This document shows, one piece after another, positions 27,117 through 47,970 of a stretch of DNA of 53,713 nucleotides; within the stretch, counting starts at the first letter, position 1; the number at the start of each line of letters is the position of its first letter. The position numbers and the translations under genes are program-made. The notes below the pieces were generated by a model that saw nothing but the letters and a program-made list of their open reading frames with translations, was not told the origin of the DNA and did not search any database. The stretch is taken from positions 1 through 53,713 of the IMG/VR virus record IMGVR_UViG_3300012200_000003. One strand, given 5' to 3'. Source of the DNA: a virus.

Positions 27117-27131
27117 GCAGGTCTTGTGCCA
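27117..27131 (-). promoter_or_regulatory. Sigma-54 (-24/-12) promoter P5, upstream of the capsid gene
   Basis: Minus strand reads aaGTGGCACAAGACCTGCTTATAT. Lies in the 190-nt gap between the scaffold stop and the capsid ATG. Confidence 0.7.
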
Positions 27132-27168
27132 CTTATATTTACTATTAAGAAAACAACCTACTAATAAA

Positions 27169-28233
27169 CTATCCCTGCCTTCTTTTACTATAATCAGAAA
27201 ATTTAATACCACTATCAGCACCCTTATTATTAACAAAATCACCTTTAAGTGGTTGTGCTCCAGCCGCGTCTTTTTTAACACCTTTTATCTTATCTAACTC
27301 ATCTAATGCTTTCTTTAATCTACCCATAAGTATAGCATTGTTAGCCGCTGTCATAGCTAAAAGTTCTGCAACAGGATTATTTCTAAAAGAAGGTGGAAGT
27401 GCCTCAATCACTGCATCTTGAATTTTTCTTGTTGGATGATCTTTCTTATCATATCCTGGAAAATATTTTTCTTTTGCAGCATTCACCACAGTTAAATCAT
27501 TTTCATATGTTTTACCATAAGTATCTATATAAGATTTTAAACCTTTTGATGCTTCAAAATTTTGCTCTCTTGCAAATTGTAATTGATCTCCTATAAAAGC
27601 TTCAGATTCTGCATTAGATTCTTTTGGTTCAGAAAGCATTAATTTTCCTGTTTTAGGATCCATGTCTATATCTTGCCATTTTTCTCCTCTAGAAACTTTA
27701 GCTGCTTGAAGTGACCAATGAGATTTAATTCTCTCTGACAGATTATAATCATTTAAATGTGTTTCATACTCTTTTGTTAACATGAAAGCTTTTGGATGCC
27801 CATGAATAGTAGCAGCTTCTTTTTTTCTAGATTCTTTTAAAGCCTCATTTTCTTGTTTAAGCTGTTTATGTTCTAAATAAAGAGGTTTAAGTTTATTAAA
27901 ACTTTCATTAGACATTGTCTTAAAAAATGGTCTATCTTCTTCAGGAATATCATCTAAAGTTCTTGGGAGAGTCTCTTTCTTAACTTTTACTTCTTTTTTA
28001 GGTTCTACTAAACTTTCATCAATAGTTACCCCACGATTCTTTAGAAAATCAGAGAACCCTATTTCTTTTTCTTCTGTTTTTTCTTTATCTAGATCAGCGG
28101 CCTCAGATTTTTCAACTACTTCTTCTTTTTCTTCTTTAGTTTCTGGCAACACTACCTCAACTTCTTCATTTTGTTCAGTAGTTTCTTTGGCCGTTTCTTG
28201 ATTTTCTACTTTATTTTCATTTTCTTCTGGCAT
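27169..28233 (-). CDS. Probable scaffolding protein (354 aa)
   Basis: Extremely acidic, Glu/Lys-rich N-terminal half. Lies between the portal and capsid genes. Confidence 0.6.
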   Translation of the reverse strand: MPEENENKVENQETAKETTEQNEEVEVVLPETKEEKEEVVEKSEAADLDKEKTEEKEIGFSDFLKNRGVTIDESLVEPKKEVKVKKETLPRTLDDIPEEDRPFFKTMSNESFNKLKPLYLEHKQLKQENEALKESRKKEAATIHGHPKAFMLTKEYETHLNDYNLSERIKSHWSLQAAKVSRGEKWQDIDMDPKTGKLMLSEPKESNAESEAFIGDQLQFAREQNFEASKGLKSYIDTYGKTYENDLTVVNAAKEKYFPGYDKKDHPTRKIQDAVIEALPPSFRNNPVAELLAMTAANNAILMGRLKKALDELDKIKGVKKDAAGAQPLKGDFVNNKGADSGIKFSDYSKRRQG

Positions 28234-28237
28234 AATA

Positions 28238-28540
28238 TTACTCTATATCAATTGGATGTTTATTTGTCGTTAAAAATTCTATTACCTCTCTATATCCCAC
28301 TGCCTTCAGAAGATTTTTTGCAATATTTTCACTTTGTAAATTAGCTTTAGCAGAATTTCTTGCATTATTTAATAAAGTTAATTCTCTTTTACCTAAAAAT
28401 AAAATAAGTTCTTGTGTAAACGGAAGCCTAAGCCATTTCTCAAACTCTTCTTTTTTAAGCTGCTCAGTTAAGTTATCTTCCTTTACTTCAAGTTCTATAT
28501 CTCTTGAAGCACTTTTATTATATGCAGAAGTAAAACTCAT
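28238..28540 (-). CDS. Hypothetical protein (100 aa)
   Basis: ATGA-coupled to the portal gene. Confidence 0.5.
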   Translation of the reverse strand: MSFTSAYNKSASRDIELEVKEDNLTEQLKKEEFEKWLRLPFTQELILFLGKRELTLLNNARNSAKANLQSENIAKNLLKAVGYREVIEFLTTNKHPIDIE

Positions 28541-30381: not shown

Positions 30382-30386
30382 AATTT

Positions 30387-30590
30387 TTATTTTACTTCTA
30401 AAGAAGTAATTTTAGTTGTGTCAATTACATTATAGCTATTAGAAGTAAATATAATAGCAACCTCTTGAGTAGGTGATACTGCGATAATATCTGGACTATC
30501 AATTTTAAATTGCTGACCATCACTAATATGAACAATAAAAGATTTAAATGGATATAATCTAATAGATTCCCGAAGAGTAGTTCTATTCAT
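30387..30590 (-). CDS. Small beta-rich protein, paralogue family member 2 of 5
   Basis: YPFKSFIVHISDGQQFKIDSPDIIAVSP...ITSLEV matches the family pattern. Confidence 0.6.
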   Translation of the reverse strand: MNRTTLRESIRLYPFKSFIVHISDGQQFKIDSPDIIAVSPTQEVAIIFTSNSYNVIDTTKITSLEVK

Positions 30591-31481: not shown

Positions 31482-32027
31482 TCATAAAGAAGCTCCAAAA
31501 AGATTTAAAGCTAGTAAAGCATTACTTTCACAATTATCACAACGTTTATTTCTAGATTGCTCTTTTACCGTAGCCCATCTAATATTTAACTTCCAGTTAT
31601 TTTCTTTACACTCATCACATTGGCCACAAGAATAATTTCCGTTTACTAAAATTCTATCAAGAGATTTATCTTTAGGCTTTTCTCCTAAAATAGAAATAAA
31701 ATTTAAGACAGAACCCTTTAAAAATTTACATACTTGAATTCCACGGCCTCCATAATTTTTATAGTATAAACTATTTGAATTCTTACATCTATCTTTCATA
31801 TTAGACCAACAACTCCAAGTTGGAGTTCCATAAAATCCATGAACTTCATTCCTAGGATTAAAGCATCCACATGACTTAGTTTTACCTGCCCTTAAACTAA
31901 GACCTCGTATAATTTTAACATTACCACAATCACACTTACATTTCCATAACCTCCCATAAATATCTCTTCCAGATTTACCAATAACTAATAACTTCCCATA
32001 TCTATTACCAATCTCATTCTTATACAT
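31482..32027 (-). CDS. Cys-rich HNH-related (LDRI..NGNY...RWAT..EQ..N type) homing-endonuclease-like protein, paralogue of 35204..35836
   Basis: Start moved to Met22 (MYKNEIGNRYGKLLVIG), which overlaps the terminase stop by 8 nt. Motifs: WKCKCDCG, SCGC, YKNYGGRGIQVC, SLDRILVNGNY..NIRWATVKEQSRNKR. Confidence 0.6.
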   Translation of the reverse strand: MYKNEIGNRYGKLLVIGKSGRDIYGRLWKCKCDCGNVKIIRGLSLRAGKTKSCGCFNPRNEVHGFYGTPTWSCWSNMKDRCKNSNSLYYKNYGGRGIQVCKFLKGSVLNFISILGEKPKDKSLDRILVNGNYSCGQCDECKENNWKLNIRWATVKEQSRNKRCDNCESNALLALNLFGASL

Positions 32028-33738
32028 AATTATATTTACTATTCTTTTTTGTTTTATGTCCAGTAATAATACTAAGTGAACCATGAGCATTTGTTTTCTT
32101 CCTTCTCTGTAATTTCATTCCATTCCAAGTTATTTGTTCTTCTATTTCTTCCGGAGTCATTTTAGTAGAGTCTTTTTCTACTTTAACAGATTCATCTTCT
32201 ATAAACTGATCTAAAAAATCTGATACTTTAATATTAGAAAATGCTAAAACAGCAGCATCAGCCCTATCAGGAGAATTTATTCCTTCAGCTATCATTTCAA
32301 GTTTGCTTTGTAAACAAAGCTTATCTATTCCTGCTGTGCTTTCTTTATACTTTCTACTTGCAAGTTGAGAATATAGTTTATCATCATCTAGAAGAATTAT
32401 TACTCCTTCTTCTACTAAACGAGAAAACTTACTCCATATTTCTGCACCTCTATTCCGAAATTGTTTTTTATTCTTAGCGGCGGACTGATTTAATACTCTA
32501 TTTATCATCCACTTCTTTTTACGTAAAATATCTATTACAGCTCTCCCCACGCCACCATCATCACCATATATGTATGGATGATCTTTAGGAATCTTAGCTT
32601 CAGATAGTTCTTTATCTATGAAATCAGCTAATAAAGTTGCATCTTTTATTCTACAAGTTTTTTGTTTAATTTGTTTATTTCCCTTAAAAATACTTACTAC
32701 AGACTCATCACCATTTGTAGAAAGAGCTATATCAATACCAATTCTTATTTCATTACCAAAAGATTTAATGAAATTTAGTTTAACTTTATTTCTTAATTTC
32801 TCAAGCCGTTCATGGGATAAAACATATTTCCCATCTATAAAAGTAAAAAGTGCGAGCCATTTACTTCTAAAGTGTGGATTAAATTCTCCAAGCTCTTTTA
32901 AATCTTCATCAAACTCATCTCTACTTTGATGAGGGCAATCAAAAAATGTTACACGTTTTTTATTTGGCCAATTGATAAAAGACTTATAAAAATCTCCAAT
33001 AGGGGCACCAGGAGTTGATACATTAATCCAATAATTAAAACCAGTACATCTACGTAAAGCTCTAAAGATTTCAGGAGCTACAGATTTTGCTTCATTCACA
33101 ATTATCGCCATTTCACTATTAGGTTCGAGTGGATGATAGCCTTCTGCTTTTCCTTCTTCATCTGTAGCAAATAGAATAATCTCAGAACCAGACAAATTAC
33201 AAACTATATGCCTTTTATTTACTTTTAAAATAAAAGCACCTAGATTGGCAAGAGACCAATTATTTATTCTTTCCGCAAGACCACTTATGTAAGCTTCTGT
33301 TTGATTTGTAAGTTGAACTCCCGAACTTGAAGTTATAATAACACGACTACGTATTTTTGTAAGAATAAACCAAAGAGAAAAGGGAGCAATAATAAAAGCA
33401 TCTTTACCAGAGCCATTTGCTGCACAAAGAGCAAATTTATGTGGATGTAAACTTGTAGATTTAACTCTACATAAAGATTCTCCTGTATCTATTTGCCAGG
33501 GATGAAGAATTACAGTTCCATTATTTATTTGTGGGTCAAAGAAAGCAAGAAGTTCTATTGATGTATCAAAACCTTCAAGGCGCTGCCAATTTTCATAGAT
33601 TCTTTCTGGTTTTTCATCATTAAAATACTCAGAATCTTTTTTATTTTCTCTGGCACTTTCCTTTTTAAAAGATTCATCTGCAGAGAGAGGAATTACTACT
33701 CTTTTGGCTTCAATTAAATCTGGATTTTCTAGTAACAT
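32020..33738 (-). CDS. Terminase large subunit
   Basis: Walker A-like CAANGSGKDAF; Walker B-like MAIIVNEAK. C-terminal nuclease-like acidic motifs (GIDIALSTNGDES, DDGGVG). Size and position fit. Confidence 0.75.
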   Translation of the reverse strand: MLLENPDLIEAKRVVIPLSADESFKKESARENKKDSEYFNDEKPERIYENWQRLEGFDTSIELLAFFDPQINNGTVILHPWQIDTGESLCRVKSTSLHPHKFALCAANGSGKDAFIIAPFSLWFILTKIRSRVIITSSSGVQLTNQTEAYISGLAERINNWSLANLGAFILKVNKRHIVCNLSGSEIILFATDEEGKAEGYHPLEPNSEMAIIVNEAKSVAPEIFRALRRCTGFNYWINVSTPGAPIGDFYKSFINWPNKKRVTFFDCPHQSRDEFDEDLKELGEFNPHFRSKWLALFTFIDGKYVLSHERLEKLRNKVKLNFIKSFGNEIRIGIDIALSTNGDESVVSIFKGNKQIKQKTCRIKDATLLADFIDKELSEAKIPKDHPYIYGDDGGVGRAVIDILRKKKWMINRVLNQSAAKNKKQFRNRGAEIWSKFSRLVEEGVIILLDDDKLYSQLASRKYKESTAGIDKLCLQSKLEMIAEGINSPDRADAAVLAFSNIKVSDFLDQFIEDESVKVEKDSTKMTPEEIEEQITWNGMKLQRRKKTNAHGSLSIITGHKTKKNSKYNYV

Positions 33739-34744: not shown

Positions 34745-34848
34745 AAAAAGTTTTTAGTCTCCATTACTTATCACAAGATAAGAATTAAAAATGCACTCAA
34801 CTCCTCCTGGGAATTTTTATTTTCAATCATCTGGAGACTAAATTAATA

Positions 34849-34859
34849 TTCTGTCATAG
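34849..34859 (-). repeat. 11-mer CTATGACAGAA, copy a (inverted on the plus strand)
   Basis: Plus strand reads TTCTGTCATAG. Flank conservation extends to about 17 nt (..AATATTCTGTCATAG). Confidence 0.8.
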
Positions 34860-34960
34860 TTTTCTACACAAGTAAAAATCAAACCTGAAACAGACGCCAA
34901 AAATTCTAGGAAAAGCGAAACATAAAACTAGAATTATTTAGTATTTTCAGTCTATTTGAC

Positions 34961-34971
34961 CTATGACAGAA
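34961..34971 (+). repeat. 11-mer CTATGACAGAA, copy b
   Basis: Exact 11-mer followed by ATTAA. Confidence 0.8.
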
Positions 34972-35168
34972 ATTAAAGTGAGTATGATACTTTATCATGG
35001 AGGTATTTACAACCATAAGATAAGTATTTTATCTAATTAAACATACTCACTAATTGAGGAACTCTATAAAGTCACCGCGAGAGACTGTGAATCAGGTCGC
35101 TTGTGAGAACCTTAATTTAATCCCTTTATCGCTATCTATAGAGTTCCAAATTATTATTTCCAATTAAG

Positions 35169-35179
35169 CTCGCGCGCAG
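35169..35179. repeat. GC-rich inverted repeat arm CTCGCGCGCAG
   Basis: Its reverse complement CTGCGCGCGAG matches 36305..36315 (CCGCGCGCGAG) at 10 of 11 positions. The two arms bracket the two-gene cassette 35204..36258. Confidence 0.6.
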
Positions 35180-35203
35180 AAATTTTAATAATAAATTCTT
35201 CAT

Positions 35204-35836
35204 TTATAATATAAAGACCGGGTTTTCTAGTATATCCTTGTGTTTTAATGCAAGATCATAGGTAGATATATCTACACCCAGAATTTCTATTCTTGTCGGT
35301 CTTCTATTATTAGCTTGATTTTTCCAAGTATCCCATTTAATATTTAATTCCCATCCATTTTTTAAACATTCTTCACATTTACCACAAGTGTAACCTTTAT
35401 CATTGTTAATTCTTTCTATACTATATTTTTTAGATGGCCTATATCCAATAACAGAAGTAAAATTATCAGGTGATTGTGCTATAAATTGGCAAACATTAAT
35501 TCCTCTTCTTCCATAATTTTTATACTGTTCATTATTTTCATTTTGACATCTACCTACCATTGAATTCCATACATTATACTCAGGAAAATAACTCATCCCA
35601 TGAATTTCCTTAAATCCACACCTACAACCACAAGATTCTGAACCTCCATTTAATAATGAACGTTCTCTTATGGAAGATTCTTTACCACAAGAACATTTGC
35701 ATAACCAATAATATACAGATAAATATCTCCAATCTATAAAATCTGAACGCCAGATTTTTTCTTTAACAATCTTATCCAATTTAATGACAATAAGATTACC
35801 AAAAATACGTCCTGTTAAATCTATTTTCTTTTTCAT
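35204..35836 (-). CDS. Cys-rich HNH-related homing-endonuclease-like protein, paralogue of 31482..32027
   Basis: Shares WLCKCSCG, SCGC, YKNYGRRGINVC and SIERINNDKGY..NIKWDTWKNQANNRR with the paralogue. Confidence 0.6.
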   Translation of the reverse strand: MKKKIDLTGRIFGNLIVIKLDKIVKEKIWRSDFIDWRYLSVYYWLCKCSCGKESSIRERSLLNGGSESCGCRCGFKEIHGMSYFPEYNVWNSMVGRCQNENNEQYKNYGRRGINVCQFIAQSPDNFTSVIGYRPSKKYSIERINNDKGYTCGKCEECLKNGWELNIKWDTWKNQANNRRPTRIEILGVDISTYDLALKHKDILENPVFIL

Positions 35837-36558: not shown

Positions 36559-36615
36559 AGTTAGTAAGTACTCACTTACTTTCCTGGGCACTAAGTTAGT
36601 AAGTACTCACTTACT
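36559..36615. repeat. Two 22-bp direct repeats AGTTAGTAAGTACTCACTTACT (period 35 bp), each internally palindromic
   Basis: Copies at 36559..36580 and 36594..36615. Each has inner arms AGTAAGT / ACTTACT. Confidence 0.85.
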
Positions 36616-36842: not shown

Positions 36843-37043
36843 ATATAGTAACTTGGAGTTCGTCAGTGTGAACTAAGGAGCACACTCCAACGTCCTCTTG
36901 TTAACTTGGACTACATAGTGTCCAAGGTGCCACAGTCCAGAATGCGTGTGTTATTTTGGATTGGCGAAGCGTAAATTTGCTTATGTAGTGCCAAGTTGAA
37001 TCCTCAAAGCAAAGGACGAAAGTCCACAACCTAGAAGGAAACA

Positions 37044-37589: not shown

Positions 37590-37599
37590 CAAAAGCAAG

Positions 37600-37635
37600 T
37601 CCTCTGGATTATTATATTCAGAGGATTTTGTTTTG
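37600..37635 (+). terminator. Rho-independent terminator after 37044..37589
   Basis: TCCTCTG-N12-CAGAGGA followed by TTTTGTTTTG. Confidence 0.75.
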
Positions 37636-37981: not shown

Positions 37982-38176
37982 ATGACAAAAGAACAAAAAC
38001 TAACAGAACAGTTTAATACTTTAACAGAATCTATTAAAGATTTTATTAAAGCATGTCCAGAATTTCCTGAAGGATTTGAATTAGTTAAAAGAATTGGAAT
38101 CAACGTAGCTAATGTAGAAACTACCCTTCACTGGGAATTTAATTGTTTAGAATTAGGAGTTTTTTTTTCAAAATAA
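37982..38176 (+). CDS. Hypothetical protein (64 aa)
   Basis: 30 nt downstream of promoter P2. Confidence 0.5.
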   Translation: MTKEQKLTEQFNTLTESIKDFIKACPEFPEGFELVKRIGINVANVETTLHWEFNCLELGVFFSK

Positions 38177-38273
38177 AAAGGAGAGTTTGTGTTTCAATTT
38201 TTAATGTTTAATGAATTTATGAAGGATTTCTAATATTTTCTATGCTTGTTACCTTCATATACATGAATATACT

Positions 38274-38300
38274 TATATATATATATATATATATATATAT
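38274..38300. repeat. (TA)n microsatellite, about 13 units
   Basis: Uninterrupted TATATA... run of 27 nt. Confidence 0.95.
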
Positions 38301-38346
38301 AAGACAAAAAAAGAGCATTCCCCCTTTCCAATATAAGGAGTAATAA

Positions 38347-38396
38347 GAAAACAAACAAAAGTAATTGAAAACAAACAAAAGTAATAAGAAAACAAG
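38347..38396. repeat. Tandem ~20-bp repeat GAAAACAAACAAAAGTAAT, two full copies plus a partial third copy (iteron-like)
   Basis: Copies at 38347..38365 and 38367..38385, plus a partial copy at 38388..38396. Confidence 0.85.
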
Positions 38397-38629
38397 AATT
38401 TTCTTAGAAAATATAATTAAAGAAATAAAAAAGACAAAAATTCTACCTTTGATAAATCTAGCTAACAGCGGAAAAGAACAAATTAAGTTGAGGTCACAAT
38501 ATGGTCTAACTCAAGATCGGGTGTCTTTAATCAAATATTAACTTAGAAAGTTCCTATCAGTGATATTCTAAATCTAATATTTACAACTTTACTGTTTAAC
38601 CCAATCACCTAATTACAAATAACCTATAA

Positions 38630-38659: not shown

Positions 38660-38893
38660 ATGACTCTATTTACATTCATTAGACTTTACGCAGTTAGAAA
38701 ATCAGGTCCATTTCTTCCAAGAGAAGTAAATATGGAAGGAAATTTTATAAAATATATGCTTAAAGAAGGGCATATAGAAAGTAATGGAATGGGTTACTAT
38801 AGTGTTACAGAACGATGTGCAAAGAATCTAGAAGCAGTAAAACAAACAATGATAAAATTAGATGGAAACAGAGGATGGAAGGAGATAAAATGA
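38660..38893 (+). CDS. Hypothetical protein (77 aa)
   Basis: First ORF of a coupled array. Confidence 0.5.
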   Translation: MTLFTFIRLYAVRKSGPFLPREVNMEGNFIKYMLKEGHIESNGMGYYSVTERCAKNLEAVKQTMIKLDGNRGWKEIK

Positions 38894-39090
38894 ATCTAAG
38901 AGAACTTAAACGTAGTTTACAGGAGAAAACATTCACTTGTAATAACAATGAACAACTAAAATTTGAAATACTAGCAACAATTTTAACAGAAAATAACAAT
39001 ATTATTAAAGGAAGGTTGCAAAATATAAATGTAAGCAAAGAGAATAAGAGTATTACTCTTCACTTTTTTGAATGTTTTCCAAGAACATGA
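38890..39090 (+). CDS. Hypothetical protein (66 aa; start moved to Met26 of the track ORF 38815..39090)
   Basis: ATGA overlap with the upstream stop. Confidence 0.5.
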   Translation: MNLRELKRSLQEKTFTCNNNEQLKFEILATILTENNNIIKGRLQNINVSKENKSITLHFFECFPRT

Positions 39091-39112
39091 AAAATAAATC
39101 AATTAAAACACA

Positions 39113-39322
39113 ATGAAAATACACATATACATAGTCTGGGTTAATATTAACGATCAATTTAATTTCTTTGAAGCATTTTCTTGCTTAAGAGATGCTGATT
39201 CACTTAAAGAAAAACTAGGATATCAAGGAATACCCTCTAAAACAACATTACATATATTAGAAATTAAAGAAAATTATCTTGAAACAGTTAGTGGAGACTA
39301 TATTAAAAATCTAAAAGTATGA
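39113..39322 (+). CDS. Hypothetical protein (69 aa)
   Basis: ORF in a coupled array. Confidence 0.5.
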   Translation: MKIHIYIVWVNINDQFNFFEAFSCLRDADSLKEKLGYQGIPSKTTLHILEIKENYLETVSGDYIKNLKV

Positions 39323-39588
39323 AAACAATAAGATATGGTCTAACAAAAGGAGCAAGAGTTTGGAAAGGAAAAGAAGAAATTCATATAAATATTCTTCAGC
39401 TAGAATATTATTTTATAGACTTATTAGAACCTATGGAAGAAGGAAGTTGTCGACAAATAAAAATTAATTTATTTTGCCCTGATGGAACAATAGTAAAGAA
39501 TGTTACTGTTGTTGGTTTTTGTATTAAACTAGTAAATAAAGATTCACTTTTTGATGGAAGATTCAACTCAACACAAGATAAATTATGA
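39319..39588 (+). CDS. Hypothetical protein (89 aa)
   Basis: ATGA coupling. Confidence 0.5.
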   Translation: MKTIRYGLTKGARVWKGKEEIHINILQLEYYFIDLLEPMEEGSCRQIKINLFCPDGTIVKNVTVVGFCIKLVNKDSLFDGRFNSTQDKL

Positions 39589-39842
39589 CAATACAAAGTA
39601 TAATAGAACAATTACCTCATTCTCTTAGAAAAAGCTATCTTAAAGCTTCTTTCAAACAAGCAGCAAATAAAATGAAAGAACCTGAAAGAACAATTTTACT
39701 TACCTGTGGTATCTCAGGAAAATATAAATTAGAAACTAAAATTTTAGAAAAATTTAGAAAAAATCAAGTAAAAATACTATTTTCTATGCTAGAAGACTGG
39801 AAAGCAGAAATAAAAGAACATAAACAGTTACCAATGATATGA
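39585..39842 (+). CDS. Hypothetical protein (85 aa)
   Basis: ATGA coupling. Confidence 0.5.
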   Translation: MTIQSIIEQLPHSLRKSYLKASFKQAANKMKEPERTILLTCGISGKYKLETKILEKFRKNQVKILFSMLEDWKAEIKEHKQLPMI

Positions 39843-39976
39843 CAAAATTCTATCAATTAGAGGAAGAAAATATTAGAAATTTTGGTATCACAGTATCTAA
39901 AGTAGATAAGCTTTGGTTTTTCAGATTGTATTTATGGAAAATTAGAATTTGTTTTACAAATAAAAAAACCAAATGA
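39839..39976 (+). CDS. Possible small protein (45 aa)
   Basis: Hand-translated as MTKFYQLEEENIRNFG... ATGA coupling on both sides. Confidence 0.3.
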   Translation: MTKFYQLEEENIRNFGITVSKVDKLWFFRLYLWKIRICFTNKKTK

Positions 39977-40095
39977 AATCTCTAAAAAATAAACAAGATA
40001 AAATACTAAACAAATTAAACCAAAACCCAACAAGAAAAACATATTGGAAAATTTTACACAAAATAGAAAAAGAAATAAAAAAGAAAAGATTATAA
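39973..40095 (+). CDS. Possible small basic protein (40 aa)
   Basis: Hand-translated as MKSLKNKQDKILNKLNQNPTRKTYWKILHK... Confidence 0.3.
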   Translation: MKSLKNKQDKILNKLNQNPTRKTYWKILHKIEKEIKKKRL

Positions 40096-40253: not shown

Positions 40254-40285
40254 TATCTCAACAATATCAATTTGCATCTCAATTT

Positions 40286-40432
40286 ATGAAAAGATATTTA
40301 ATAATTTATGTTTTTGATGGAGAATTTATGATTGAATTAATAAAAGCAGATAGCATATATAAAGCTCTAGAAGAATTTGAAAATTCAGAAATAAGATTTC
40401 ATGAAATTCATTCCATAATACAAATAAAATGA
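40286..40432 (+). CDS. 48-aa protein, paralogue of 40706..40855 (start moved from the TTG at 40238)
   Basis: MKRYLIIYVFDGEFMIELIKADSIYKALEEFENS... aligns with MKRYLIIFISKDQFCASEIKAKSINKALIKFEKS... The track start at 40238 lies inside promoter P3. Confidence 0.45.
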   Translation: MKRYLIIYVFDGEFMIELIKADSIYKALEEFENSEIRFHEIHSIIQIK

Positions 40433-40650
40433 AAATATACCAAGTATTTGATAATAATAAGCCAGCACAATTTCCATTCCATAAAGTTCATCCAAGCTGG
40501 AAAAGAAGTAAATTTAATTCTTTCATAAAAGCCTTTAATTATGCAAAACATTGGTTAGGAGTTTATAAAAATTCAGTCCAGCTAAAATTAAATACTCCTT
40601 CTGATTACACAGGATATGGAGATTTAATTGAAATAAGAAGAATTTCCTAA
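40429..40650 (+). CDS. Hypothetical protein (73 aa)
   Basis: ATGA coupling. Confidence 0.5.
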   Translation: MKIYQVFDNNKPAQFPFHKVHPSWKRSKFNSFIKAFNYAKHWLGVYKNSVQLKLNTPSDYTGYGDLIEIRRIS

Positions 40651-40705
40651 AATTAGGAAATAAAATATTAAATTAGGCTACCGCAAATTAATACAAAACA
40701 AACAA

Positions 40706-40855
40706 ATGAAAAGATACTTAATTATATTTATATCAAAAGATCAATTCTGTGCAAGTGAAATAAAAGCAAAAAGTATAAATAAAGCTTTAATTAAATTTGA
40801 AAAATCAGGTATGAGTTATGAAGAAATCTATGCAATTAATAGAATAATTTCTTAA
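40706..40855 (+). CDS. 49-aa protein, paralogue of 40286..40432 (below the track cutoff)
   Basis: Hand-translated. Shares the MKRYLII start and the KAL..FE core. Confidence 0.45.
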   Translation: MKRYLIIFISKDQFCASEIKAKSINKALIKFEKSGMSYEEIYAINRIIS

Positions 40856-40961
40856 AATAATCTCAAAAAGAGACAGAAATAGTATAAATTGACAGCGCGA
40901 ACTATTTATATTACTTCTGCAATAAAACTAATAACAATTCGCGCAAAAGAAAGAACAGCAT

Positions 40962-41627
40962 ATGAAGGAATTCGTAATAGATGTGGAGAAAGTAGAGAAA
41001 GTAGAAAAGAAAAACAATGGACAGGTTGTTAAAGATGAAAAAGGACAACCAGTAATTGAGGAACTTAAAACAACAATTAAAGTTCCAATTATTCCAGTAA
41101 AAATTCAAAAAGGAAGGGGACAAGGAAGTGAATATCTTGCTCCAAAAGATCTAAGCACGATGAGCTTGAATGATTTGCTTAAGATTTTTCCTTCTGATGA
41201 TCTCTGGAATAAACTAATCAAACCAAAGATTAAGCAATTCTGTGCAACAATAACCACAGAAGCAAGTATTGAAGCAGGACGAGTTACTGCTGCAATGATT
41301 AACAGTAAGCAAAACAAAAAGAAGAGGAAATATACTGAAGAGAAACCAATTCAAGATGAAGAGAAATTCTATGAAGCCTTTTCTCGAATGTTTCAGACAT
41401 TATCTGCAAGGGGAGAATCTCTTGCTGGACTTACACGACAACAGAATGAACTTCTAATGGAATTGCTATCTCTTGATAGTAAGAAGCCAGATTACGGAGT
41501 TCGTTCAGTTGCCCTTCTAGACGAGATACGCAAGGTGCGTGAAGCAATTGATGATAAGAAAGCTGATGATTCTGAAGAATCAGGAGAAGATGAAGGAGAA
41601 GATAAGCCAGAAGCAGTTGCTGCTTAA
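40962..41627 (+). CDS. Hypothetical protein with an acidic C-terminal tail (221 aa), probably highly expressed
   Basis: Higher G+C than its surroundings. C-terminus DDSEESGEDEGEDKPEAVAA. Followed by a terminator. Confidence 0.65.
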   Translation: MKEFVIDVEKVEKVEKKNNGQVVKDEKGQPVIEELKTTIKVPIIPVKIQKGRGQGSEYLAPKDLSTMSLNDLLKIFPSDDLWNKLIKPKIKQFCATITTEASIEAGRVTAAMINSKQNKKKRKYTEEKPIQDEEKFYEAFSRMFQTLSARGESLAGLTRQQNELLMELLSLDSKKPDYGVRSVALLDEIRKVREAIDDKKADDSEESGEDEGEDKPEAVAA

Positions 41628-41636
41628 TTAAAACAA

Positions 41637-41681
41637 AAAGGTAGTAGATAAATATTTTTATTTACTACCTTTCTTTCTTTT
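41637..41681 (+). terminator. Rho-independent terminator after 40962..41627
   Basis: AAAGGTAGTA...TACTACCTTT hairpin followed by the T-rich run CTTTCTTTT. Confidence 0.7.
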
Positions 41682-41879
41682 ATGAAAATCAAAGAACTTA
41701 TAGAAAATCTATCTAAATTTAACCCAAATACTGAAATAATAATACTTAACGAGATTCAAGATTTTGCTGAGCTTACTTCTATAATACAAAAAGATGTAAT
41801 AAAGGAAGAAGTAGCGTGGAACGATGAATTAGATGAAGAGGAACTAGATGAAGAAATCAACATAATTATATTATCATGA
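41682..41879 (+). CDS. Hypothetical acidic protein (65 aa)
   Basis: ORF directly after the terminator. Confidence 0.5.
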   Translation: MKIKELIENLSKFNPNTEIIILNEIQDFAELTSIIQKDVIKEEVAWNDELDEEELDEEINIIILS

Positions 41880-42013
41880 TAATTAAAACAAAACGTGGAT
41901 TTAAAGTAGTAAGCAAAGAAGGAAAGAATCTATCCAAAGATAATCTTACAAAAGAAGAAGCCGAGAAACGTTTACGTCAAGTTGAATTCTTCAAATATAA
42001 AAGAAAGAAATGA
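41876..42013 (+). CDS. Possible small basic protein (45 aa)
   Basis: Hand-translated as MIIKTKRGFKVVSKEGKNLSKDNLTKEEAEKRLRQVEFFKYKRKK. ATGA coupling on both sides. Confidence 0.35.
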   Translation: MIIKTKRGFKVVSKEGKNLSKDNLTKEEAEKRLRQVEFFKYKRKK

Positions 42014-42186
42014 AAACTACAATAACTATATGCACTTTCAAAAGAAAAAAGAATTCTAAAATAGAAAAAGGAATAGCAATTGGAGAAGTTGATATTATCA
42101 TAGATAAGAATCTTAAAATAGTGAAGAATATTGTATGGAATTATTCTTTACATTGGGCTGAAGGAACATTACCTATAGAATTATGA
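42010..42186 (+). CDS. Possible small protein (58 aa)
   Basis: Hand-translated. ATGA coupling on both sides. Confidence 0.35.
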   Translation: MKTTITICTFKRKKNSKIEKGIAIGEVDIIIDKNLKIVKNIVWNYSLHWAEGTLPIEL

Positions 42187-42632
42187 ATTCTCCCCTTCTA
42201 ACATTGCCAATTCTAGCTAAATTTGTAGATCTAATTATAGGCTATCAAGATTTCAAACAAATAGATGATAACAATTTATTAGAACTTATTAAGCTAGTAG
42301 ATAATGAGGAAAAACTATATCATGTAGAAAATAATATACTTTGGTATAAGAAAGCTTGGTTAAAAGATATTGATAATATAGCTAGAAAAAAGAGAGAGTC
42401 GGAAATAGTAAATTCTATAGTCGATGAAAGAAAAAGGGCAATAAAAGAACTTCAATTTAAGTTAGCAGAATTATCTGGACTCGAGGAAGATAAGTTATTA
42501 AATATGGCACTTTCTATTTTACATAAAAGAAAAGTAGATACGGCGAAGCTTTTTAATGTTGATATTGAGAATATTCCAGATTGTCCTGTAAATTATATAG
42601 TTATAGACGGCTCTACTGAGTATAAATTATAA
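42183..42632 (+). CDS. Hypothetical protein (149 aa)
   Basis: ORF track. Confidence 0.55.
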   Translation: MNSPLLTLPILAKFVDLIIGYQDFKQIDDNNLLELIKLVDNEEKLYHVENNILWYKKAWLKDIDNIARKKRESEIVNSIVDERKRAIKELQFKLAELSGLEEDKLLNMALSILHKRKVDTAKLFNVDIENIPDCPVNYIVIDGSTEYKL

Positions 42633-42656
42633 AACCATTAGAACAAGAAATTAAAT

Positions 42657-42827
42657 ATGAACACTATAAAATTAACTAAATTAATAAATGAAACAGTAGA
42701 AGCAGCAGGTGAACAAGAATTATATGAATTAGGTTTACATATTCTTAAAAATTGTAATAGACCTTCTTGTACACATTGTCAAGAGATTCTTAAGGCTATT
42801 TTAGAAGATAATGAAAAACCTAATTAA
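42657..42827 (+). CDS. Possible small protein (56 aa)
   Basis: Hand-translated as MNTIKLTKLINETVEAAGEQ...CNRPSCTHC... Fills a gap. Confidence 0.3.
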   Translation: MNTIKLTKLINETVEAAGEQELYELGLHILKNCNRPSCTHCQEILKAILEDNEKPN

Positions 42828-43161
42828 ATTAATAGAACTTTATCAAAAGATGGCAGATTTAACTTTACTAAAATGTAAACAATGTAGAGTTCCTCTTAGT
42901 TGTTGTTCGATAGAATATTGTGAAATAGCATCTAATTATGCTAAAGAAATTTACAATATAAATTTACAGCCAACAGAAAATAAAAAATTACCATTTATGA
43001 GTTCACATGGATGTATAGTAGAACCATATTTAAGACCAATGTGCACACTACATGTTTGTTCTATTAATTCTATTGGTTGTGATATTAAAGATCCAAAATG
43101 GACAAAAATATATTTTGAGCTTAGAGAACAAATAGATATTTTAGAATATGAAGAAAGCTAA
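42811..43161 (+). CDS. Cys-rich protein, YkgJ/CxxCxxCC-like putative metal-binding domain
   Basis: CKQCRVPLSCC plus further conserved Cys residues (HGC, MCTLHVC). Confidence 0.45.
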   Translation: MKNLIKLIELYQKMADLTLLKCKQCRVPLSCCSIEYCEIASNYAKEIYNINLQPTENKKLPFMSSHGCIVEPYLRPMCTLHVCSINSIGCDIKDPKWTKIYFELREQIDILEYEES

Positions 43162-45235
43162 GGAAATCACATTAGAACAAGAACTAAAAAATTTAGATAA
43201 ATGTTTTCAATTAGCTAAATCACGTTACTCATTTAATAAAGAAGATCGTTTTTTATCTAATATAGCTTTACTTTTTGGTGTAAAAATAACAGAAAATAAA
43301 CCAATAGAATTTTCAGATATTTCAATCTTCTATAATCAGTTAGTAATCATAACAAAGGATAAATATGCTAGTAGAAAATTTATTGAAGAAGAAATTAAAG
43401 ATATTAAGATATGTGATGAAGAGAAAAAAATATTGGGCGAAGATATTAAAGAACAAGAAAAGGGAAGATCAGAAATTAGTTCAGTCTTTATTTCGAAATT
43501 CCCAGATCAAATAGCTACATTACTTCATCAGAAAGATGGTTGTGAACAAGAAGAATGCGCAAGACATATATTTAATAAAATTTGGGTAGATGAAGAAAAA
43601 GGTCATCTTTTAAGTGCACAAACAGGAGCCGGTAAAACATATATTCTAGCTTCTATTATCAAGAATCTACTCCATAATAAATTTCTACAAAAATGTAATT
43701 GTATTTCTCCATTACCTATCGTCTATGTAACTAAAGCATCAGTAGTAGAACAAACAGAAAAGGTATTTAAAGATGAATTTAATATAGATACAGTTAATAC
43801 TGTAGTTGTGGTTAATATAGAACTTTTACGTAGTAAATTTGGTAAACTATTTGTAAAAGAACAGGTTAATGTAGTTTCTGGAGTAGAACATATTGAATAT
43901 GTATGGAATGAAAATATATTTCCTTGTCTATTTATTTGGGACGAATGTCAAATATTAGCTAGAGAGGAATCCATTCAATCTAAGATAGCACAAGGAGTTA
44001 ATAGAATAACATCTAGACCAGTATATCAAATATTTGCATCTGCTACTCCATTTTCTAGAGTATATGAAGCTAGGTGTTTTGCTGTATCTACAAGAAGCAC
44101 TTTTAATTTAGGTATTGGTAAAGTAGAATTAACTGATAGAAATTGGAAACAATTTGCAGCTCAAATAGCAGGTTCAGGTGACCCAATGGATTACAATGAA
44201 GCAGCTATAAAAAGACTTGTTTCTCATCTTGATCCTTACATAACAAGAATTAAAAACATTCGTCCAAAACATAAAGCTTTTAATGGAGTTCAGAAAATAC
44301 ATTTTCAAACAAAAGAAGAAAGAGAAGAATATGAGACAGCTTGGGAACGTTATGAGAAAGAAAAAGCAAGACTAGAAGAAGAACAAGAAAAAACAGGAGA
44401 AAATAGTTTTTTCCAAGTATTAGCACAACTTACCATAATGAGAAAAGCAGCAGAAAAATGCAAGCGTTATCATTATGCTGAATTTATGGATAAGACATGG
44501 AAAGCAGGTAAAGCACCAGTTCTTGCATGTTCTTTCAAAGGAACAATTACTTCCACATACAAAATTTTAGTTGAAGACTACAATTGGAAAAGAGAAGATG
44601 TTTCTATTATTTGGGGTGGAAGTATTGAGACTATGAATCTTAAGAAAAAAGTAGCTCTTAAAATGAAAAATAATAAAGAATTTCAAGAATTAACAAAAGC
44701 AGCAGGGATTGATTTACAAGAACTTGGATTTAATCTAGAAAATTTAGAGGAAAAAACAGAAGAACAGCTTGCTTTTGAAAAGTTACATAATCTTCTTACA
44801 CAGAAACCAGAAGAAAGAGAAAAAGAGAAGATGCGCTTTCAAAAACAATTGTCTAAGGCATGTTTCTTTACATTTAAATCAGGTGGAGTGGGACTCTCTT
44901 TACATCATCAATATCAAAAAGCTAGGCCGCGAGAAACTTTATTAACTCCAGTTTATAGTGAAAAGGAATTAGTGCAAGGTTTAGGTAGATGTCCTAGAAT
45001 TACAAGCTTAAGTGACACATATCAATATATGGTATATTACGTAGGTACAGTAGAAGAATCTGTTGCGGCACGTGTAGTTATGAAATTAAGAAATTTAAAA
45101 CATGTTGTAAAGATGAGAGAATCTTGGGAGGACATATTTGTTGGTAAGAAATATAAAGAAACAGAGGGACAAAAAGAATTAATGGATGAGATAGAGGAAG
45201 GTAATACAATGTTAGATTATATTGAGGAGAAATGA
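43148..45235 (+). CDS. SF2 (SNF2-like) helicase
   Basis: Motif I SAQTGAGKTY, motif II FIWDECQ, motif III ASATP, motif V-like SGGVGLSLH, motif VI QGLGRCPR. Confidence 0.75.
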   Translation: MKKAKEITLEQELKNLDKCFQLAKSRYSFNKEDRFLSNIALLFGVKITENKPIEFSDISIFYNQLVIITKDKYASRKFIEEEIKDIKICDEEKKILGEDIKEQEKGRSEISSVFISKFPDQIATLLHQKDGCEQEECARHIFNKIWVDEEKGHLLSAQTGAGKTYILASIIKNLLHNKFLQKCNCISPLPIVYVTKASVVEQTEKVFKDEFNIDTVNTVVVVNIELLRSKFGKLFVKEQVNVVSGVEHIEYVWNENIFPCLFIWDECQILAREESIQSKIAQGVNRITSRPVYQIFASATPFSRVYEARCFAVSTRSTFNLGIGKVELTDRNWKQFAAQIAGSGDPMDYNEAAIKRLVSHLDPYITRIKNIRPKHKAFNGVQKIHFQTKEEREEYETAWERYEKEKARLEEEQEKTGENSFFQVLAQLTIMRKAAEKCKRYHYAEFMDKTWKAGKAPVLACSFKGTITSTYKILVEDYNWKREDVSIIWGGSIETMNLKKKVALKMKNNKEFQELTKAAGIDLQELGFNLENLEEKTEEQLAFEKLHNLLTQKPEEREKEKMRFQKQLSKACFFTFKSGGVGLSLHHQYQKARPRETLLTPVYSEKELVQGLGRCPRITSLSDTYQYMVYYVGTVEESVAARVVMKLRNLKHVVKMRESWEDIFVGKKYKETEGQKELMDEIEEGNTMLDYIEEK

Positions 45236-45426
45236 AAACACTATACAGACTTAAACCAATTTGTGTTGGTAATAATGGAACTATATTTTATAAAATTCAA
45301 ATAAATAAGAAATCTATATTTAAGAAAATTAAATGGATTGATTTTGATAGTGAACTTCTTAGATTAGTAGAAGCAAATAAAGCATTAGAAGAACTTAAAA
45401 ACTTTGAAAAAGAAAATGAAAATTGA
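45232..45426 (+). CDS. Hypothetical protein (64 aa)
   Basis: ATGA coupling. Confidence 0.45.
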   Translation: MKTLYRLKPICVGNNGTIFYKIQINKKSIFKKIKWIDFDSELLRLVEANKALEELKNFEKENEN

Positions 45427-45574
45427 AAAACAATTACAAATAGAAAAAGAATTTTATAAAACTTATATAGATATAAAAAAATATTTAGAAAAAAGATCAC
45501 TAGAAGAACACAGAATAGAAATAAGAACTAAATTATATCTTTTAAGAAATAAAATTCTTTTTAAAATTCTATGA
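45416..45574 (+). CDS. Possible small protein (52 aa)
   Basis: Hand-translated as MKIEKQLQIEKEFYKTYIDIKKY... The stop overlaps the ligase ATG. Confidence 0.3.
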   Translation: MKIEKQLQIEKEFYKTYIDIKKYLEKRSLEEHRIEIRTKLYLLRNKILFKIL

Positions 45575-46467
45575 ATAAACTATTTCGTCCTATGTTGGCA
45601 GCAACTTTAGAAGAATCTGATTTAAAAAACTTAACTTATCCATTAATTCTACAACCCAAATTAGACGGTATTAGATGTGTAATTGTAGAGGGAAAAGTAT
45701 TAAGTAGAAAATTAAAACCAATTCCTAATAGATACATTAGAGCTTCTTTAGAAAGGTTTGAGTTTCTTAAAAAAAATCCAGTTTTAATAGATGGTGAACT
45801 AATTATAGAAGGAGATAATTTTAATGAAATTCAATCTTCTGTTATGTCAGAAGAAGGTATTCCACCATTTACTTATAAAGTATTTGATTGTTTACTTGAA
45901 TGGAATTCTCAACCATATGAACAAAGAATGACACATAATTTATCTTATTTATATCATCCTAATATAGAATTTTTAAATTCAGCTATAGTTCATAATCTAG
46001 AAGAACTTCTAGAGTGGGAAACTTATATACTAAAAGATAATTATGAAGGAATAATTATTAGATCATTAGATGCACCATATAAGTTTGGAAGATCTACATT
46101 AAGAGAACAAGGATTAATGAAATTTAAAAGATTTCAAGATAGTGAGGCTGTTATACTTAGTTCTAACGCTTTTCTAAGTAATGCTAACCCAAATGAATTA
46201 GATAATTTAGGTTTAACTAAACATAGCTCAGCGAAAGCTAATTTAATACCTGAAAATAAGTTAGGATCTTTTATAGTTAGAGATTGTAATAAAGATTCTC
46301 CTTTCTATCAAATAATATTTGCTTTAGGGACTGGTTTCACTGAAGAACAAAGAAAGAAATTTTGGTTTCAAAATATGAAAGGAAAAATAATTAAATACAA
46401 ATATCAAAAATTTGGTAGTAAGAATGCTCCGCGCATTCCTGTTTTTATTGGATTTAGAGAGGATTAA
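45571..46467 (+). CDS. ATP-dependent DNA ligase
   Basis: Adenylation motif I KLDGIR, motif IV EGIIIR, motif V LMKFKRF. Size is T7-ligase-like. Confidence 0.85.
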   Translation: MNKLFRPMLAATLEESDLKNLTYPLILQPKLDGIRCVIVEGKVLSRKLKPIPNRYIRASLERFEFLKKNPVLIDGELIIEGDNFNEIQSSVMSEEGIPPFTYKVFDCLLEWNSQPYEQRMTHNLSYLYHPNIEFLNSAIVHNLEELLEWETYILKDNYEGIIIRSLDAPYKFGRSTLREQGLMKFKRFQDSEAVILSSNAFLSNANPNELDNLGLTKHSSAKANLIPENKLGSFIVRDCNKDSPFYQIIFALGTGFTEEQRKKFWFQNMKGKIIKYKYQKFGSKNAPRIPVFIGFRED

Positions 46468-46470
46468 TAT

Positions 46471-46704
46471 ATGAGTGAATTAACACAATGTAATTATTGT
46501 AGTCTAGAAGATACAAAATACCAAGCAAGAAAAAGTAAAATGAAAATTACTATGTTACCTTCTACAAGATCAGAAGGTTTGGAAGGAATAGATATTTATA
46601 TTCATCCAAAAGAAGTTAGATTAAAAAATCCTATTTCAGAGGGAGACCATAAAAAATATTTCAAATCTTGGATGTGGGAAATAACAGATCATTGTGTATG
46701 TTAA
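46471..46704 (+). CDS. Hypothetical protein (77 aa)
   Basis: ORF track. Confidence 0.5.
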   Translation: MSELTQCNYCSLEDTKYQARKSKMKITMLPSTRSEGLEGIDIYIHPKEVRLKNPISEGDHKKYFKSWMWEITDHCVC

Positions 46705-46913
46705 AAGCTGAAGATATATTATTTAATAGTTTATGTGAGTTGTTTGAATGGCAAGAAGGAATTACTCTAGGAGGCAGATATTGGTGTTGCGATGATAAGA
46801 TAATACATTCAAAAGAGGAACTATGTGAATATTTATTTAATGAAATAAGAATTATTAAACAAAAAAAAATAGAACTCCAAAAAGAATTAATTTTATTAAA
46901 ATATGGCAAATAA
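46668..46913 (+). CDS. Hypothetical protein (81 aa)
   Basis: ORF track; overlaps its neighbours. Confidence 0.4.
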   Translation: MDVGNNRSLCMLKAEDILFNSLCELFEWQEGITLGGRYWCCDDKIIHSKEELCEYLFNEIRIIKQKKIELQKELILLKYGK

Positions 46914-47745
46914 TAATGAAAGTCTAAAAGCTCTAGCATCACAAGCTAAGCTTGATCCAGCATTCAGAAAAATGCTTATAGAATCTGGTAATGAATCTCT
47001 AGTAAGAGACTTAGATGAAGTTTCAGATAAAACAAATACAGAAGTTTGGTTAAATAAGTTTATTACAAACAATTCTAAAATGATAGAATTAAAAGAACAT
47101 GTTAGAAAATTAGCCCCATTAAATGATCCAATTTTGATATTTGGTGAGACTGGAACAGGAAAAGAATTACTTGCTCATGCTCTTCACGGCGAACGTAAAG
47201 GAAAATTTATAGCAATTAATTGTGCTGGTTTACCAGAACATCTTGTAGAATCTGAATTATTTGGGCATGATAAGAATTCTTTTACTGGTGCTCTTAAAGA
47301 TAAAACTGGATTAATGGAAGAAGCACAAGATGGAACTATTTTTCTGGATGAAATAGGTGATCTAGCTATGCCAATGCAAGCTAAATTATTAAGAGCAATA
47401 CAGGAGAAGAAAATAAGAAAAGTAGGTTCTAATGAAGAGCGTCTTATAAACTGTAGAGTTGTAAGTGCTACACATAGAGATTTAGAATTTTGGGTTCAGC
47501 TTGATAAATTTAGAGAAGACCTTTTCTATCGGATTTCTACTTTTATACTTAAGCCATCAAGTTTAAAACAAAGAAGTGGCGACATAAGTAAAATTATAGA
47601 ATCTTTAGATAAAGAAGAACAAGAAATTGAAGATTATGAAGAGTTTTCATCTTTAATTGATCCTAGTAAATTGAGTGGCAATGTTAGAAGTCTCCAGCAA
47701 ATCTATAGAAGATATATAATCTTAGGAACAAAACCACACGAATAG
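46903..47745 (+). CDS. Sigma-54-dependent transcriptional activator homologue (bEBP AAA+ core only; no receiver domain, no C-terminal HTH)
   Basis: Walker A GETGTGKE; GAFTGA-loop region ESELFGHDKNSFTGA; Walker B TIFLDEIGD; QAKLLRAIQEKKIRKVGS; RVVSATHRDL; FREDLFYRIS; sensor II GNVRSLQQ. The protein ends 16 aa after sensor II. Confidence 0.85.
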   Translation: MANNNESLKALASQAKLDPAFRKMLIESGNESLVRDLDEVSDKTNTEVWLNKFITNNSKMIELKEHVRKLAPLNDPILIFGETGTGKELLAHALHGERKGKFIAINCAGLPEHLVESELFGHDKNSFTGALKDKTGLMEEAQDGTIFLDEIGDLAMPMQAKLLRAIQEKKIRKVGSNEERLINCRVVSATHRDLEFWVQLDKFREDLFYRISTFILKPSSLKQRSGDISKIIESLDKEEQEIEDYEEFSSLIDPSKLSGNVRSLQQIYRRYIILGTKPHE

Positions 47746-47748
47746 AAT

Positions 47749-47934
47749 ATGAAAACACGTGAAGAAATATTAAAAATATTCGATACAGTAGAAAAGCATT
47801 TTACAAAAACTTTATTTGATATAGAAAAATATTTAGATGATAAGAATATTCCAGTTGAAAATTATAAAAAAGATATTACAGAAAAGTTAAATAAATTAGG
47901 AAATGATCTCTTAGAAAGTTTAATAAAATTGTAA
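47749..47934 (+). CDS. Hypothetical protein (61 aa)
   Basis: ORF track. Confidence 0.5.
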   Translation: MKTREEILKIFDTVEKHFTKTLFDIEKYLDDKNIPVENYKKDITEKLNKLGNDLLESLIKL

Positions 47935-47955
47935 TTTTTTAATATTAAAATAGGT

Positions 47956-47970
47956 TGGCACGAATCTTGC
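47956..47970 (+). promoter_or_regulatory. Sigma-54 (-24/-12) promoter P4
   Basis: ggTTGGCACGAATCTTGCTTATAT. 53 nt upstream of the ATG at 48023. Confidence 0.75.

Follow-up and report, generated by a model that had tools for sequence, protein, structure and literature searches.

A minimal virus-encoded sigma-54 activator and seven candidate sigma-54 promoters in the genome of an uncultivated tailed phage

On promoters of the -24/-12 class, the RNA polymerase holoenzyme containing sigma-54 forms a closed complex, the opening of which requires an AAA+ activator and ATP. Several sigma-54 activators lack a DNA-binding domain, including FlgR of Helicobacter pylori, CtcC of Chlamydia, and FleT of Rhodobacter, as well as the truncated PspF(1-275) in vitro, and activators of this kind act from solution. 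Here, we analyze the genome of an uncultivated virus, IMG/VR record IMGVR_UViG_3300012200_000003 (positions 1 to 53,713; hereinafter, the window, that is, the whole stretch of 53,713 nucleotides [nt]), which carries a gene for a sigma-54 activator of 280 amino acids (aa) and seven -24/-12 sites, denoted P1 to P7. Similar to FlgR, CtcC, FleT, and PspF(1-275), the phage protein combines an AAA+ domain and a GAFTGA-type loop with the lack of a helix-turn-helix (HTH) at its C-terminus, and any cellular -24/-12 promoter is a potential target. However, whereas FlgR and CtcC keep a receiver domain and PspF is controlled in trans by PspA, the phage protein has only a helical N-terminus of ~50 aa. Furthermore, in contrast to FlgR, CtcC, and FleT, this activator is encoded by a virus, and its predicted targets are the virus's own transcription units.

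Among phages, late switches are provided by gp55/gp33 together with the gp45 sliding clamp in T4, gp28 and gp33/34 in SPO1, Q in lambda, Ogr in P2, and C in Mu. As proposed here, a phage-made factor in each of these systems steers the host RNA polymerase to promoters of the phage that stay silent in the early phase of infection, which gives temporal order, but what those phages provide is a new sigma factor, an antiterminator, or an activator dependent on sigma-70, whereas in the present case, the factor would be an ATPase that unlocks an alternative sigma factor of the host, with the promoter type of that sigma factor placed ahead of the phage genes (for late-gene switches as a comparison, see PMC2988020). 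The Pseudomonas phage YuA strictly depends on host sigma-54, a use that has been called 'rare' (PMC5053324, citing Ceyssens et al. 2008, as does 10.1101/2023.10.13.562163), and Cappable-seq of YuA identified one sigma-54-like promoter (P015), with most of the promoters carrying a different, phage-specific motif (10.1101/2023.10.13.562163). The resemblance to YuA lies in a lytic phage employing the host sigma-54 holoenzyme for part of its program; the difference lies in the seven sites, which extend over ~90% of the genome, and in the phage-encoded activator. Our literature search, the coverage of which was incomplete, found no paper linking a phage-encoded sigma-54 activator with phage promoters.

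Seven -24/-12 sites, six of which face gene blocks

Judging from the sequence, the middle and late genes of this phage are probably transcribed by the host sigma-54 RNA polymerase holoenzyme, with the promoters opened by the phage activator. The first-pass annotation of the window described seven sites of the sigma-54 type, all of which lie exactly where it had placed them, on the same strands and with GG-N10-GC spacing (Table 1), and the sigma-54 assignment held wherever the sequence can test it, namely, in the -24/-12 geometry, the extended consensus, and the presence of a phage activator ATPase. The pattern TGGCAC-N6-TGC occurs eight times in the window compared to 0.09 expected, a count reached in none of the 100 shuffles, and seven of these eight matches are the annotated sites, in agreement with the earlier rough estimate of well under one chance match. 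The TGGCAC hexamer is present in 17 copies against 6.4 expected; the previous count of ~16 was thus of the correct order of magnitude, although not the exact number. The -12 element reads TTGC in P1 to P4, CTGC in P5 and P7, and ATGC in P6.

Table 1. Coordinates of the sites and associated features in the window, with scores from the independent weight matrix
Feature	Coordinates	Strand	Sequence	Score	Context
Major capsid protein gene	25701..26978	-			425 aa; predicted target of P5
P5	27117..27131	-	TGGCACAAGACCTGC	21.4	139 nt upstream of the major capsid gene
P7	36375..36389	-	TGGCACAGAATCTGC	13.1	Upstream of the structural arm, 117 nt from its first gene
Palindrome pair	36563-36580 and 36598-36615		AGTAAGT-N4-ACTTACT		Identical, 35 nt apart, midway between P7 and P1
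P1	36828..36842	+	TGGCACGCGAATTGC	18.3	190-nt leader, gene 37044-37589 (181 aa), terminator; monocistronic
Conserved, predicted structured 5' leader of the P1 transcript	36853..37043	+			GC-richer than the genome; fold z-score -3.35
Intrinsic-terminator-like hairpin	37597..37628	+			13-bp stem followed by a T tract; closes the P1 unit
P2	37938..37952	+	TGGCACGTTTCTTGC	24.5	30 nt upstream of 64-aa gene 37982-38176
P6	38630..38644	-	TGGCACGAAAAATGC	19.8	Points into ORF-free 38177-38629
P3	40239..40253	+	TGGCACACTTCTTGC	28.7	Heads block 40286-47934 (helicase, ligase, activator gene)
Terminator-like hairpin	41637..41672	+			16-bp stem; inside the P3 block, after gene 40962-41627
Sigma-54 activator gene	46903..47745	+			280 aa; AAA+ core only
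P4	47956..47970	+	TGGCACGAATCTTGC	31.1	211 nt after the activator gene
Eighth pattern match	19514-19528	-		10.3	Inside ORF 19444-20829; noise level

To avoid circularity, the window was scored with a weight matrix derived from other phages only, namely, from 41 unique sites located downstream of the activator gene in relatives, none of which comes from the window. The seven best matches of this matrix in the window are the seven sites. In block shuffles, the best score averaged 10.9, with a 95th percentile of 15.7 and a maximum of 18.3, and six of the sites exceed the 95th percentile; the set of seven is thereby set apart from coding and shuffled sequence. The eighth match to the pattern, which is intragenic and scores within the shuffle range, was rejected as a part of the system and judged to be a chance occurrence.

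As had been described, all seven sites are located in gaps between credible genes; the open reading frames (ORFs) overlapping P2, P3, and P5 are short, with GTG or TTG starts, and those in the right arm (P2 and P3) are absent from the public gene calls. The sites are correctly oriented, as had been stated; six of them face the gene that opens a co-directional block, with the next start codon at a distance of 30-202 nt, and P6 faces 450 nt without an ORF. Altogether, ~90% of the genome lies downstream of some site within a co-directional block. The unit behind P4 is the replication block, extending from 48023 through the circular junction up to 7084; that behind P5 comprises the capsid gene plus the downstream genes; and that behind P7 is the packaging and structural arm, from 36258 down to 7076. 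A k-mer search upstream of the seven sites recovered AT-rich k-mers only and no shared enhancer motif, and the DNA directly upstream of P4, P5, and P6 is coding, both of which fit an activator that does not bind DNA.

The assignment of the P5 target as the major capsid gene was confirmed at the level of the fold: a Foldseek search of the PDB with an AlphaFold 2 (AF2) model of the product (predicted local distance difference test [pLDDT] score, 75.7) retrieved HK97-fold capsid proteins of Moo19, LME-1, N4, and DEV (E=4e-9 to 4e-8, probability 1.00, TM-score 0.39-0.55), with no match to a sequence family.

The activator and its conservation among relatives

The activator contains a single type of recognizable domain, PF00158 (Sigma54_activat; E=6.3e-60, residues 54-215), with the Walker A motif GETGTGKE, the L1 loop NSFTGA, the Walker B motif FLDEIG, and the sensor II motif GNVRSLQ. 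An alignment of 34 relatives (263-307 aa) retains both Walker motifs, the FTGA loop, and sensor II, and G81, G84, G86, K87, D149, E150, and R262 are invariant in it; in the loop that contacts sigma-54, F127 is invariant, T128, G129, and A130 are at least 90% conserved, and most of the relatives have GAFTGA or GSFTGA. The protein ends 18 residues past sensor II, similar to the other members of the family (~20 residues). Our Pfam scan detected neither PF02954 (HTH_8) nor a receiver domain in the activator, and PF02954 or PF00072 is listed in none of its 120 best homologs (mostly 253-307 aa). The alignments of residues 52-274 with PDB entries cover only the AAA+ domains of FleQ, NifA, NtrC, NtrC1, ZraR, and PspF, and the AF2 model (pLDDT 92.6) consists of four short N-terminal helices followed by the AAA+ fold, with no C-terminal domain. 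The N-terminal ~50 residues are poorly conserved and contain no signal-sensing domain (receiver, GAF, PAS, or V4R). Compared to cellular activators of the NtrC/FleQ type, with which it shares ~40-49% identity over the AAA+ domain, the phage protein lacks the receiver, GAF, PAS, and Fis-type HTH domains and is much shorter (280 aa vs 450-530 aa). The sequence and the structural model together point to a sigma-54 activator that has neither a sensor nor a DNA-binding domain, so that its initial label, bEBP ('enhancer-binding protein'), is a misnomer.

The activator gene is not a free-standing unit but the last gene but one in the block that P3 heads, an arrangement that implies positive feedback. 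No sigma-54 or RNA polymerase domain was identified in the phage ORFs scanned. Among the PHROGs, the activator matches an unannotated family, phrog_7998 (E=2e-45), indicating that such genes had already been seen in phage or prophage data, even if uninterpreted.

The matches to the activator in GenBank records labeled as phages were dismissed: those inspected or annotated are host DNA in mislabeled records, such as MT835853, with 61% GC, which encodes a full GAF-AAA-HTH regulator, and others whose annotation lists ordinary bacterial regulators. MT121960, the one record plausibly from a phage, was likewise set aside, given that its Walker A motif is degenerate and that it contains no sites.

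A profile search of IMG/VR identified at least 325 contigs encoding relatives of the activator, from which 80 loci were fetched, mostly from contigs of 45-56 kb; the GC content of these loci is 33-59%, and the identity of their activators to that of the window is 39-66%. Locus searches with single proteins (the activator, the P1 gene product, and the product of the first gene of the structural arm) found no relatives; only alignments worked. In 1.27 Mb of the fetched loci, the pattern TGG[CT]A[CT]-N5-[TC]TGC is present 137 times compared to 17.3 +/- 3.1 in dinucleotide shuffles, an eightfold excess, with 122 matches on the activator strand and 15 on the opposite strand. Based on crude gene calls, 76% of the matches fall in the 12% of the DNA that is intergenic, at a median of 69 nt to the next start codon. 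The consensus of the ~140 family sites is TTGGCAYG-N4-TTGCT, in which the positions that the search pattern left free drift to the sigma-54 consensus, with G following TGGCAY at 62% of the sites and T following TTGC at 88%.

Sites are kept at syntenic positions, namely, on both sides of the activator gene (downstream and 5-7 kb upstream), ahead of the capsid gene, and at the junction where the arms diverge, in relatives whose proteins are only 40-70% identical, so the arrangement passed the conservation check that had been envisaged for it. An equivalent of P4, on the same strand and no more than 800 nt (mostly 25-80 nt) downstream of the activator gene, was found in 63 of the 79 loci, and in most loci, at least one same-strand site, commonly 4-8 kb off, is located upstream of the activator gene, as is P3. 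Of the 15 IMG/VR loci anchored with a capsid profile, 14 have a P5 equivalent, located 126-295 nt upstream of where the capsid match begins. In several relatives with the divergent junction in reach, a site on the strand of the structural arm is present near the junction, equivalent to P7; stronger sites of this type than that in the window were detected in L100 (position 946; score 19.6), in L043/L046 and L070, and in the L050-L065 group, and in L046, the site lies upstream of the terminase gene, as P7 does in the window. The nearest relative, represented by Logan contigs of ~54.6 kb (L100 and L102), with 70% identity in the activator and 67% in the capsid protein, has equivalents of P1 (L100, position 565, minus strand; score 19.4; kept together with the leader), P5 (L100:9833; 13.3), P3 (29.1), and P4 (27.6), besides that of P7, and possibly of P2 (L102:1538; 18.0). 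The site at L102:3003 is 88% identical to P3 over 43 nt. A stand-alone gene for a receiver domain is present in L100, with no counterpart in the window.

A model of phage transcription and its alternatives

From these features, we infer the use of host sigma-54, activation from solution, a feedback loop, and a route by which the circuit is started. The host sigma-54 holoenzyme would sit on the phage -24/-12 sites as closed complexes, while the phage makes the 280-aa AAA+ activator that lacks sensory and DNA-binding domains. Once accumulated and oligomeric, the activator would touch sigma-54 from solution through its (N/G)(A/S)FTGA loop, spend ATP, and open every phage sigma-54 promoter. Under this model, the block with the helicase, ligase, and activator genes would be under the control of P3, the replication block under that of P4, the arm for packaging, capsid, and tail under that of P7 and P5, and three small units under that of P1, P2, and P6, with the position of the activator gene in the P3 block making the system a positive-feedback switch. 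The cluster of small genes at 38660-40095 is the only block without a sigma-54 site of its own and lies directly upstream of P3, with no predicted terminator in between. The first activator molecules probably arise by read-through out of this cluster or from P2, after which feedback through P3 would take over.

Several observations weigh against this model. The L1 loop of the window activator is NSFTGA rather than GAFTGA. The score of P7 is within the shuffle range and marginal on its own; because of this, the case for P7 as a promoter rests on its position and on the relatives. P6 has neither a credible ORF downstream nor an equivalent in the nearest relative (L102). The hairpin inside the P3 block (Table 1), located between P3 and the activator gene, may attenuate transcription into the latter. 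Judging from the structural model, the four-helix N-terminus (50 residues) could bind DNA, and the palindrome pair sits between P7 and P1. Finally, a sigma-70 scan of the window yielded 50 matches vs 62.8 expected, with no enrichment and no early promoter, consistent with the earlier remark that the activator gene has no convincing sigma-70-like promoter, and a scan for the Bacteroidota -33/-7 promoter likewise showed no enrichment (3 matches vs 3.5 expected).

The strongest alternative, albeit an improbable one, is that the sites are true sigma-54 promoters but owe their opening mainly to host activators, with the phage AAA+ protein chiefly reprogramming the host sigma-54 regulon, as the product of an auxiliary gene, or only amplifying expression. 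Because the activator gene itself lies downstream of a sigma-54 site, another starter is needed, and the dyad repeats ~200-240 nt from P7 and P1 occupy a position typical of the binding sites of DNA-binding activators. There is also the precedent of YuA, which depends on host sigma-54 (PMC5053324), and no YuA-type record was found among the tblastn matches of the activator in 50,697 GenBank phage records. Against the involvement of host activators, the activator gene and the sites co-occur across relatives with a GC content of 33-59%, the diverse hosts of which would not share one cognate DNA-binding activator; neither a repeat nor a shared motif lies upstream of five of the seven sites; and in most of the relatives, a site directly follows the activator gene.

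Considerably less plausible still is the possibility that the motif is the site of another factor, such as a phage polymerase, sigma factor, or repressor, so that its likeness to sigma-54 promoters is coincidental. Most of the phage proteins do not belong to a recognizable family, a large protein of 1771 aa (see below) is uncharacterized, and the capsid protein resembles those of N4-like phages. The latter phages carry a virion RNA polymerase. However, the ~140 independent sites match the sigma-54 consensus at every informative position, with the exact GG-N10-GC spacing; all fetched relatives encode a protein whose sole known role is sigma-54 activation; and no polymerase motifs or families were detected. 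Chance occurrence of the sites in AT-rich intergenic DNA, to which the scores of P7 and of the intragenic eighth match would conform, has a negligible probability and is already refuted for the whole set by the shuffles, none of which reaches the observed count, by the six sites above the 95th percentile, and by syntenic conservation; it could hold only for P7 taken alone.

If transcription by host sigma-54 under the control of the phage activator is borne out, an ATPase key to the enhancer-dependent sigma factor of the host will be a new entry among phage timing switches, and the regulation of a whole uncultivated phage family will be explained. The model predicts that rpoN is a determinant of host range and resistance for these phages. 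A naturally minimal, enhancer-free activator with graded, compact promoters could also serve as a set of orthogonal parts for synthetic biology. A broader proposition, on which we are closely divided and lean slightly toward the negative, is that host sigma-54 is the main transcription channel, and the activator, the single master switch, in a widespread uncultivated family of ~50-kb tailed phages (at least 325 IMG/VR contigs). Should this be the case, one sensorless activator without a DNA-binding domain would switch replication, packaging, and virion genes; the promoters, absolutely silent without the activator, would amount to a timer free of leaks, with positive feedback; sigma-70 transcription could then be shut down freely by the phage; and P6 may fire into AT-rich repeats, activating a replication origin.

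Genome organization and additional elements

The window (30% GC) consists of two gene arms, divergent at 36.3-37.0 kb and convergent near 7.08 kb. Its ends, 53593-53713 and 6-126, repeat each other over ~121 nt, and the public version of the genome is a 53,732-nt MEGAHIT k141 contig; the repeat is therefore explained as the k=141 overlap of a circular contig, that is, an assembly artifact, and the genome is complete at ~53.6 kb. The plus arm encodes a helicase, an ATP-dependent ligase, an exonuclease, an AAA_24 ATPase, a family A DNA polymerase, a DUF3987 protein, and ThyX. The polymerase is split over two ORFs, 755-2224 (the exonuclease and the start of the polymerase domain) and 3362-4414 (the C-terminal part of the polymerase), with 1.1 kb of small ORFs in between; the two-ORF organization is found in relatives as well, with the ORFs closer together in several of them. 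In the minus arm, we identified a tail-collar protein and the terminase large subunit, the latter with ~31% identity to terminases of Akkermansia phages and recognized only by tblastn. Neither PHROGs nor Pfam recognized the capsid protein, a protein of portal size, the terminase, or the tail proteins; for the promoter region, megablast against the phages in GenBank produced no match, so that no cultured phage is close at the DNA level; a tRNA search of the window found none; and an Rfam search of the window and of the regulatory region gave no match.

Some evidence bears on the host. Shine-Dalgarno-like motifs precede 15% of the gene starts in the window compared to a background of 10%, a low rate that points weakly to a leader-independent or Shine-Dalgarno-poor host, such as a member of Bacteroidota. 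An identical activator protein is labeled at NCBI as originating from a Blattabacteriaceae metagenome-assembled genome (MAG), which, together with the GC content of 30%, is a faint hint in the same direction. Sigma-54 is active in Bacteroidota (PMC12316311). A scan of GTDB genomes with the capsid profile recovered one MAG contig only. The range of GC content among the relatives suggests that the family infects several kinds of hosts.

The region of divergence contains additional elements. Judging from its sequence, the P1 leader may be a structured leader or a small RNA; it is far better kept in L100 than the surrounding divergent region, including a block of ~36 identical nt, and shows three compensatory pairs, which come from two sequences only; it has no Rfam match and no further copies in IMG/VR. 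The palindrome pair between P7 and P1 is a candidate operator, enhancer, or origin element: exact copies of AGTAAGT-N4-ACTTACT occur nowhere else in the genome, and L100 has a similar element. Near the palindromes, there are another two pairs of direct repeats, spaced 36-38 nt, and the divergent gap of L046 contains a 21-nt repeat pair at a 34-nt spacing.

The ORF-free stretch 38177-38629, into which P6 points, is AT-rich and contains a 20-nt tandem repeat (2.8 copies), a 7-nt repeat, and (TA)14; in a comparable place, L102 has six to seven copies of TTCACACCACTRGAA across two intergenic gaps (L102:555-1115). Both regions are possible origin or iteron regions, and, speculatively, P6 might produce a noncoding RNA or activate a replication origin. 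Within the P3 block, the region 40851-40996, upstream of a gene for a 221-aa protein with an acidic C-terminal tail, is 68% identical to L102, contains no sigma-54 site, and includes a conserved inverted repeat, GCGCGAAC...(~45 nt)...GTTCGCGC; this region may be another regulatory element. The sequence TCAATTTGC is located at 40266-40276 and 47982-47990, 13-17 nt past the -12 elements of P3 and P4, respectively. It also follows three sites of the nearest relative, but its presence after 10 of the 140 family sites is at the control level, and we rejected it as a general motif.

At the end of the structural arm, a gene on the minus strand (7076-12391) encodes the 1771-aa protein, with a hydrophobic N-terminus rich in glycine and alanine and repeated SEEEGSKLPK segments, which may be an internal virion protein that is ejected. 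It has no family match in PHROG or Pfam and no match in the PDB; given also the lack of a DxDxD motif, the idea that this protein is a virion RNA polymerase, prompted by the N4-like capsid fold, was discarded. Three HNH endonuclease genes are present on the minus strand (16983-17492, 31482-32090, and 35204-35836), two of which match phrog_374 and one of which overlaps the end of the terminase gene. Directly downstream of the third, there is a 459-nt gap without ORFs (34745-35203, minus strand) that is predicted to adopt a very stable fold (z = -5.7) and holds an inverted repeat, TTCTGTCATAG...CTATGACAGAA, with no Rfam match. L100 has neither this HNH gene nor the gap, which may be an intron-like or mobile insertion. 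Finally, the pentamer GCGCG occurs in 28 copies, often as GCGCGCG, compared to 1.8 expected in a genome of 30% GC; several copies are intergenic, and examples are found at positions 1022, 5766, 35171, 36306, 37726, 40895, and 40940.

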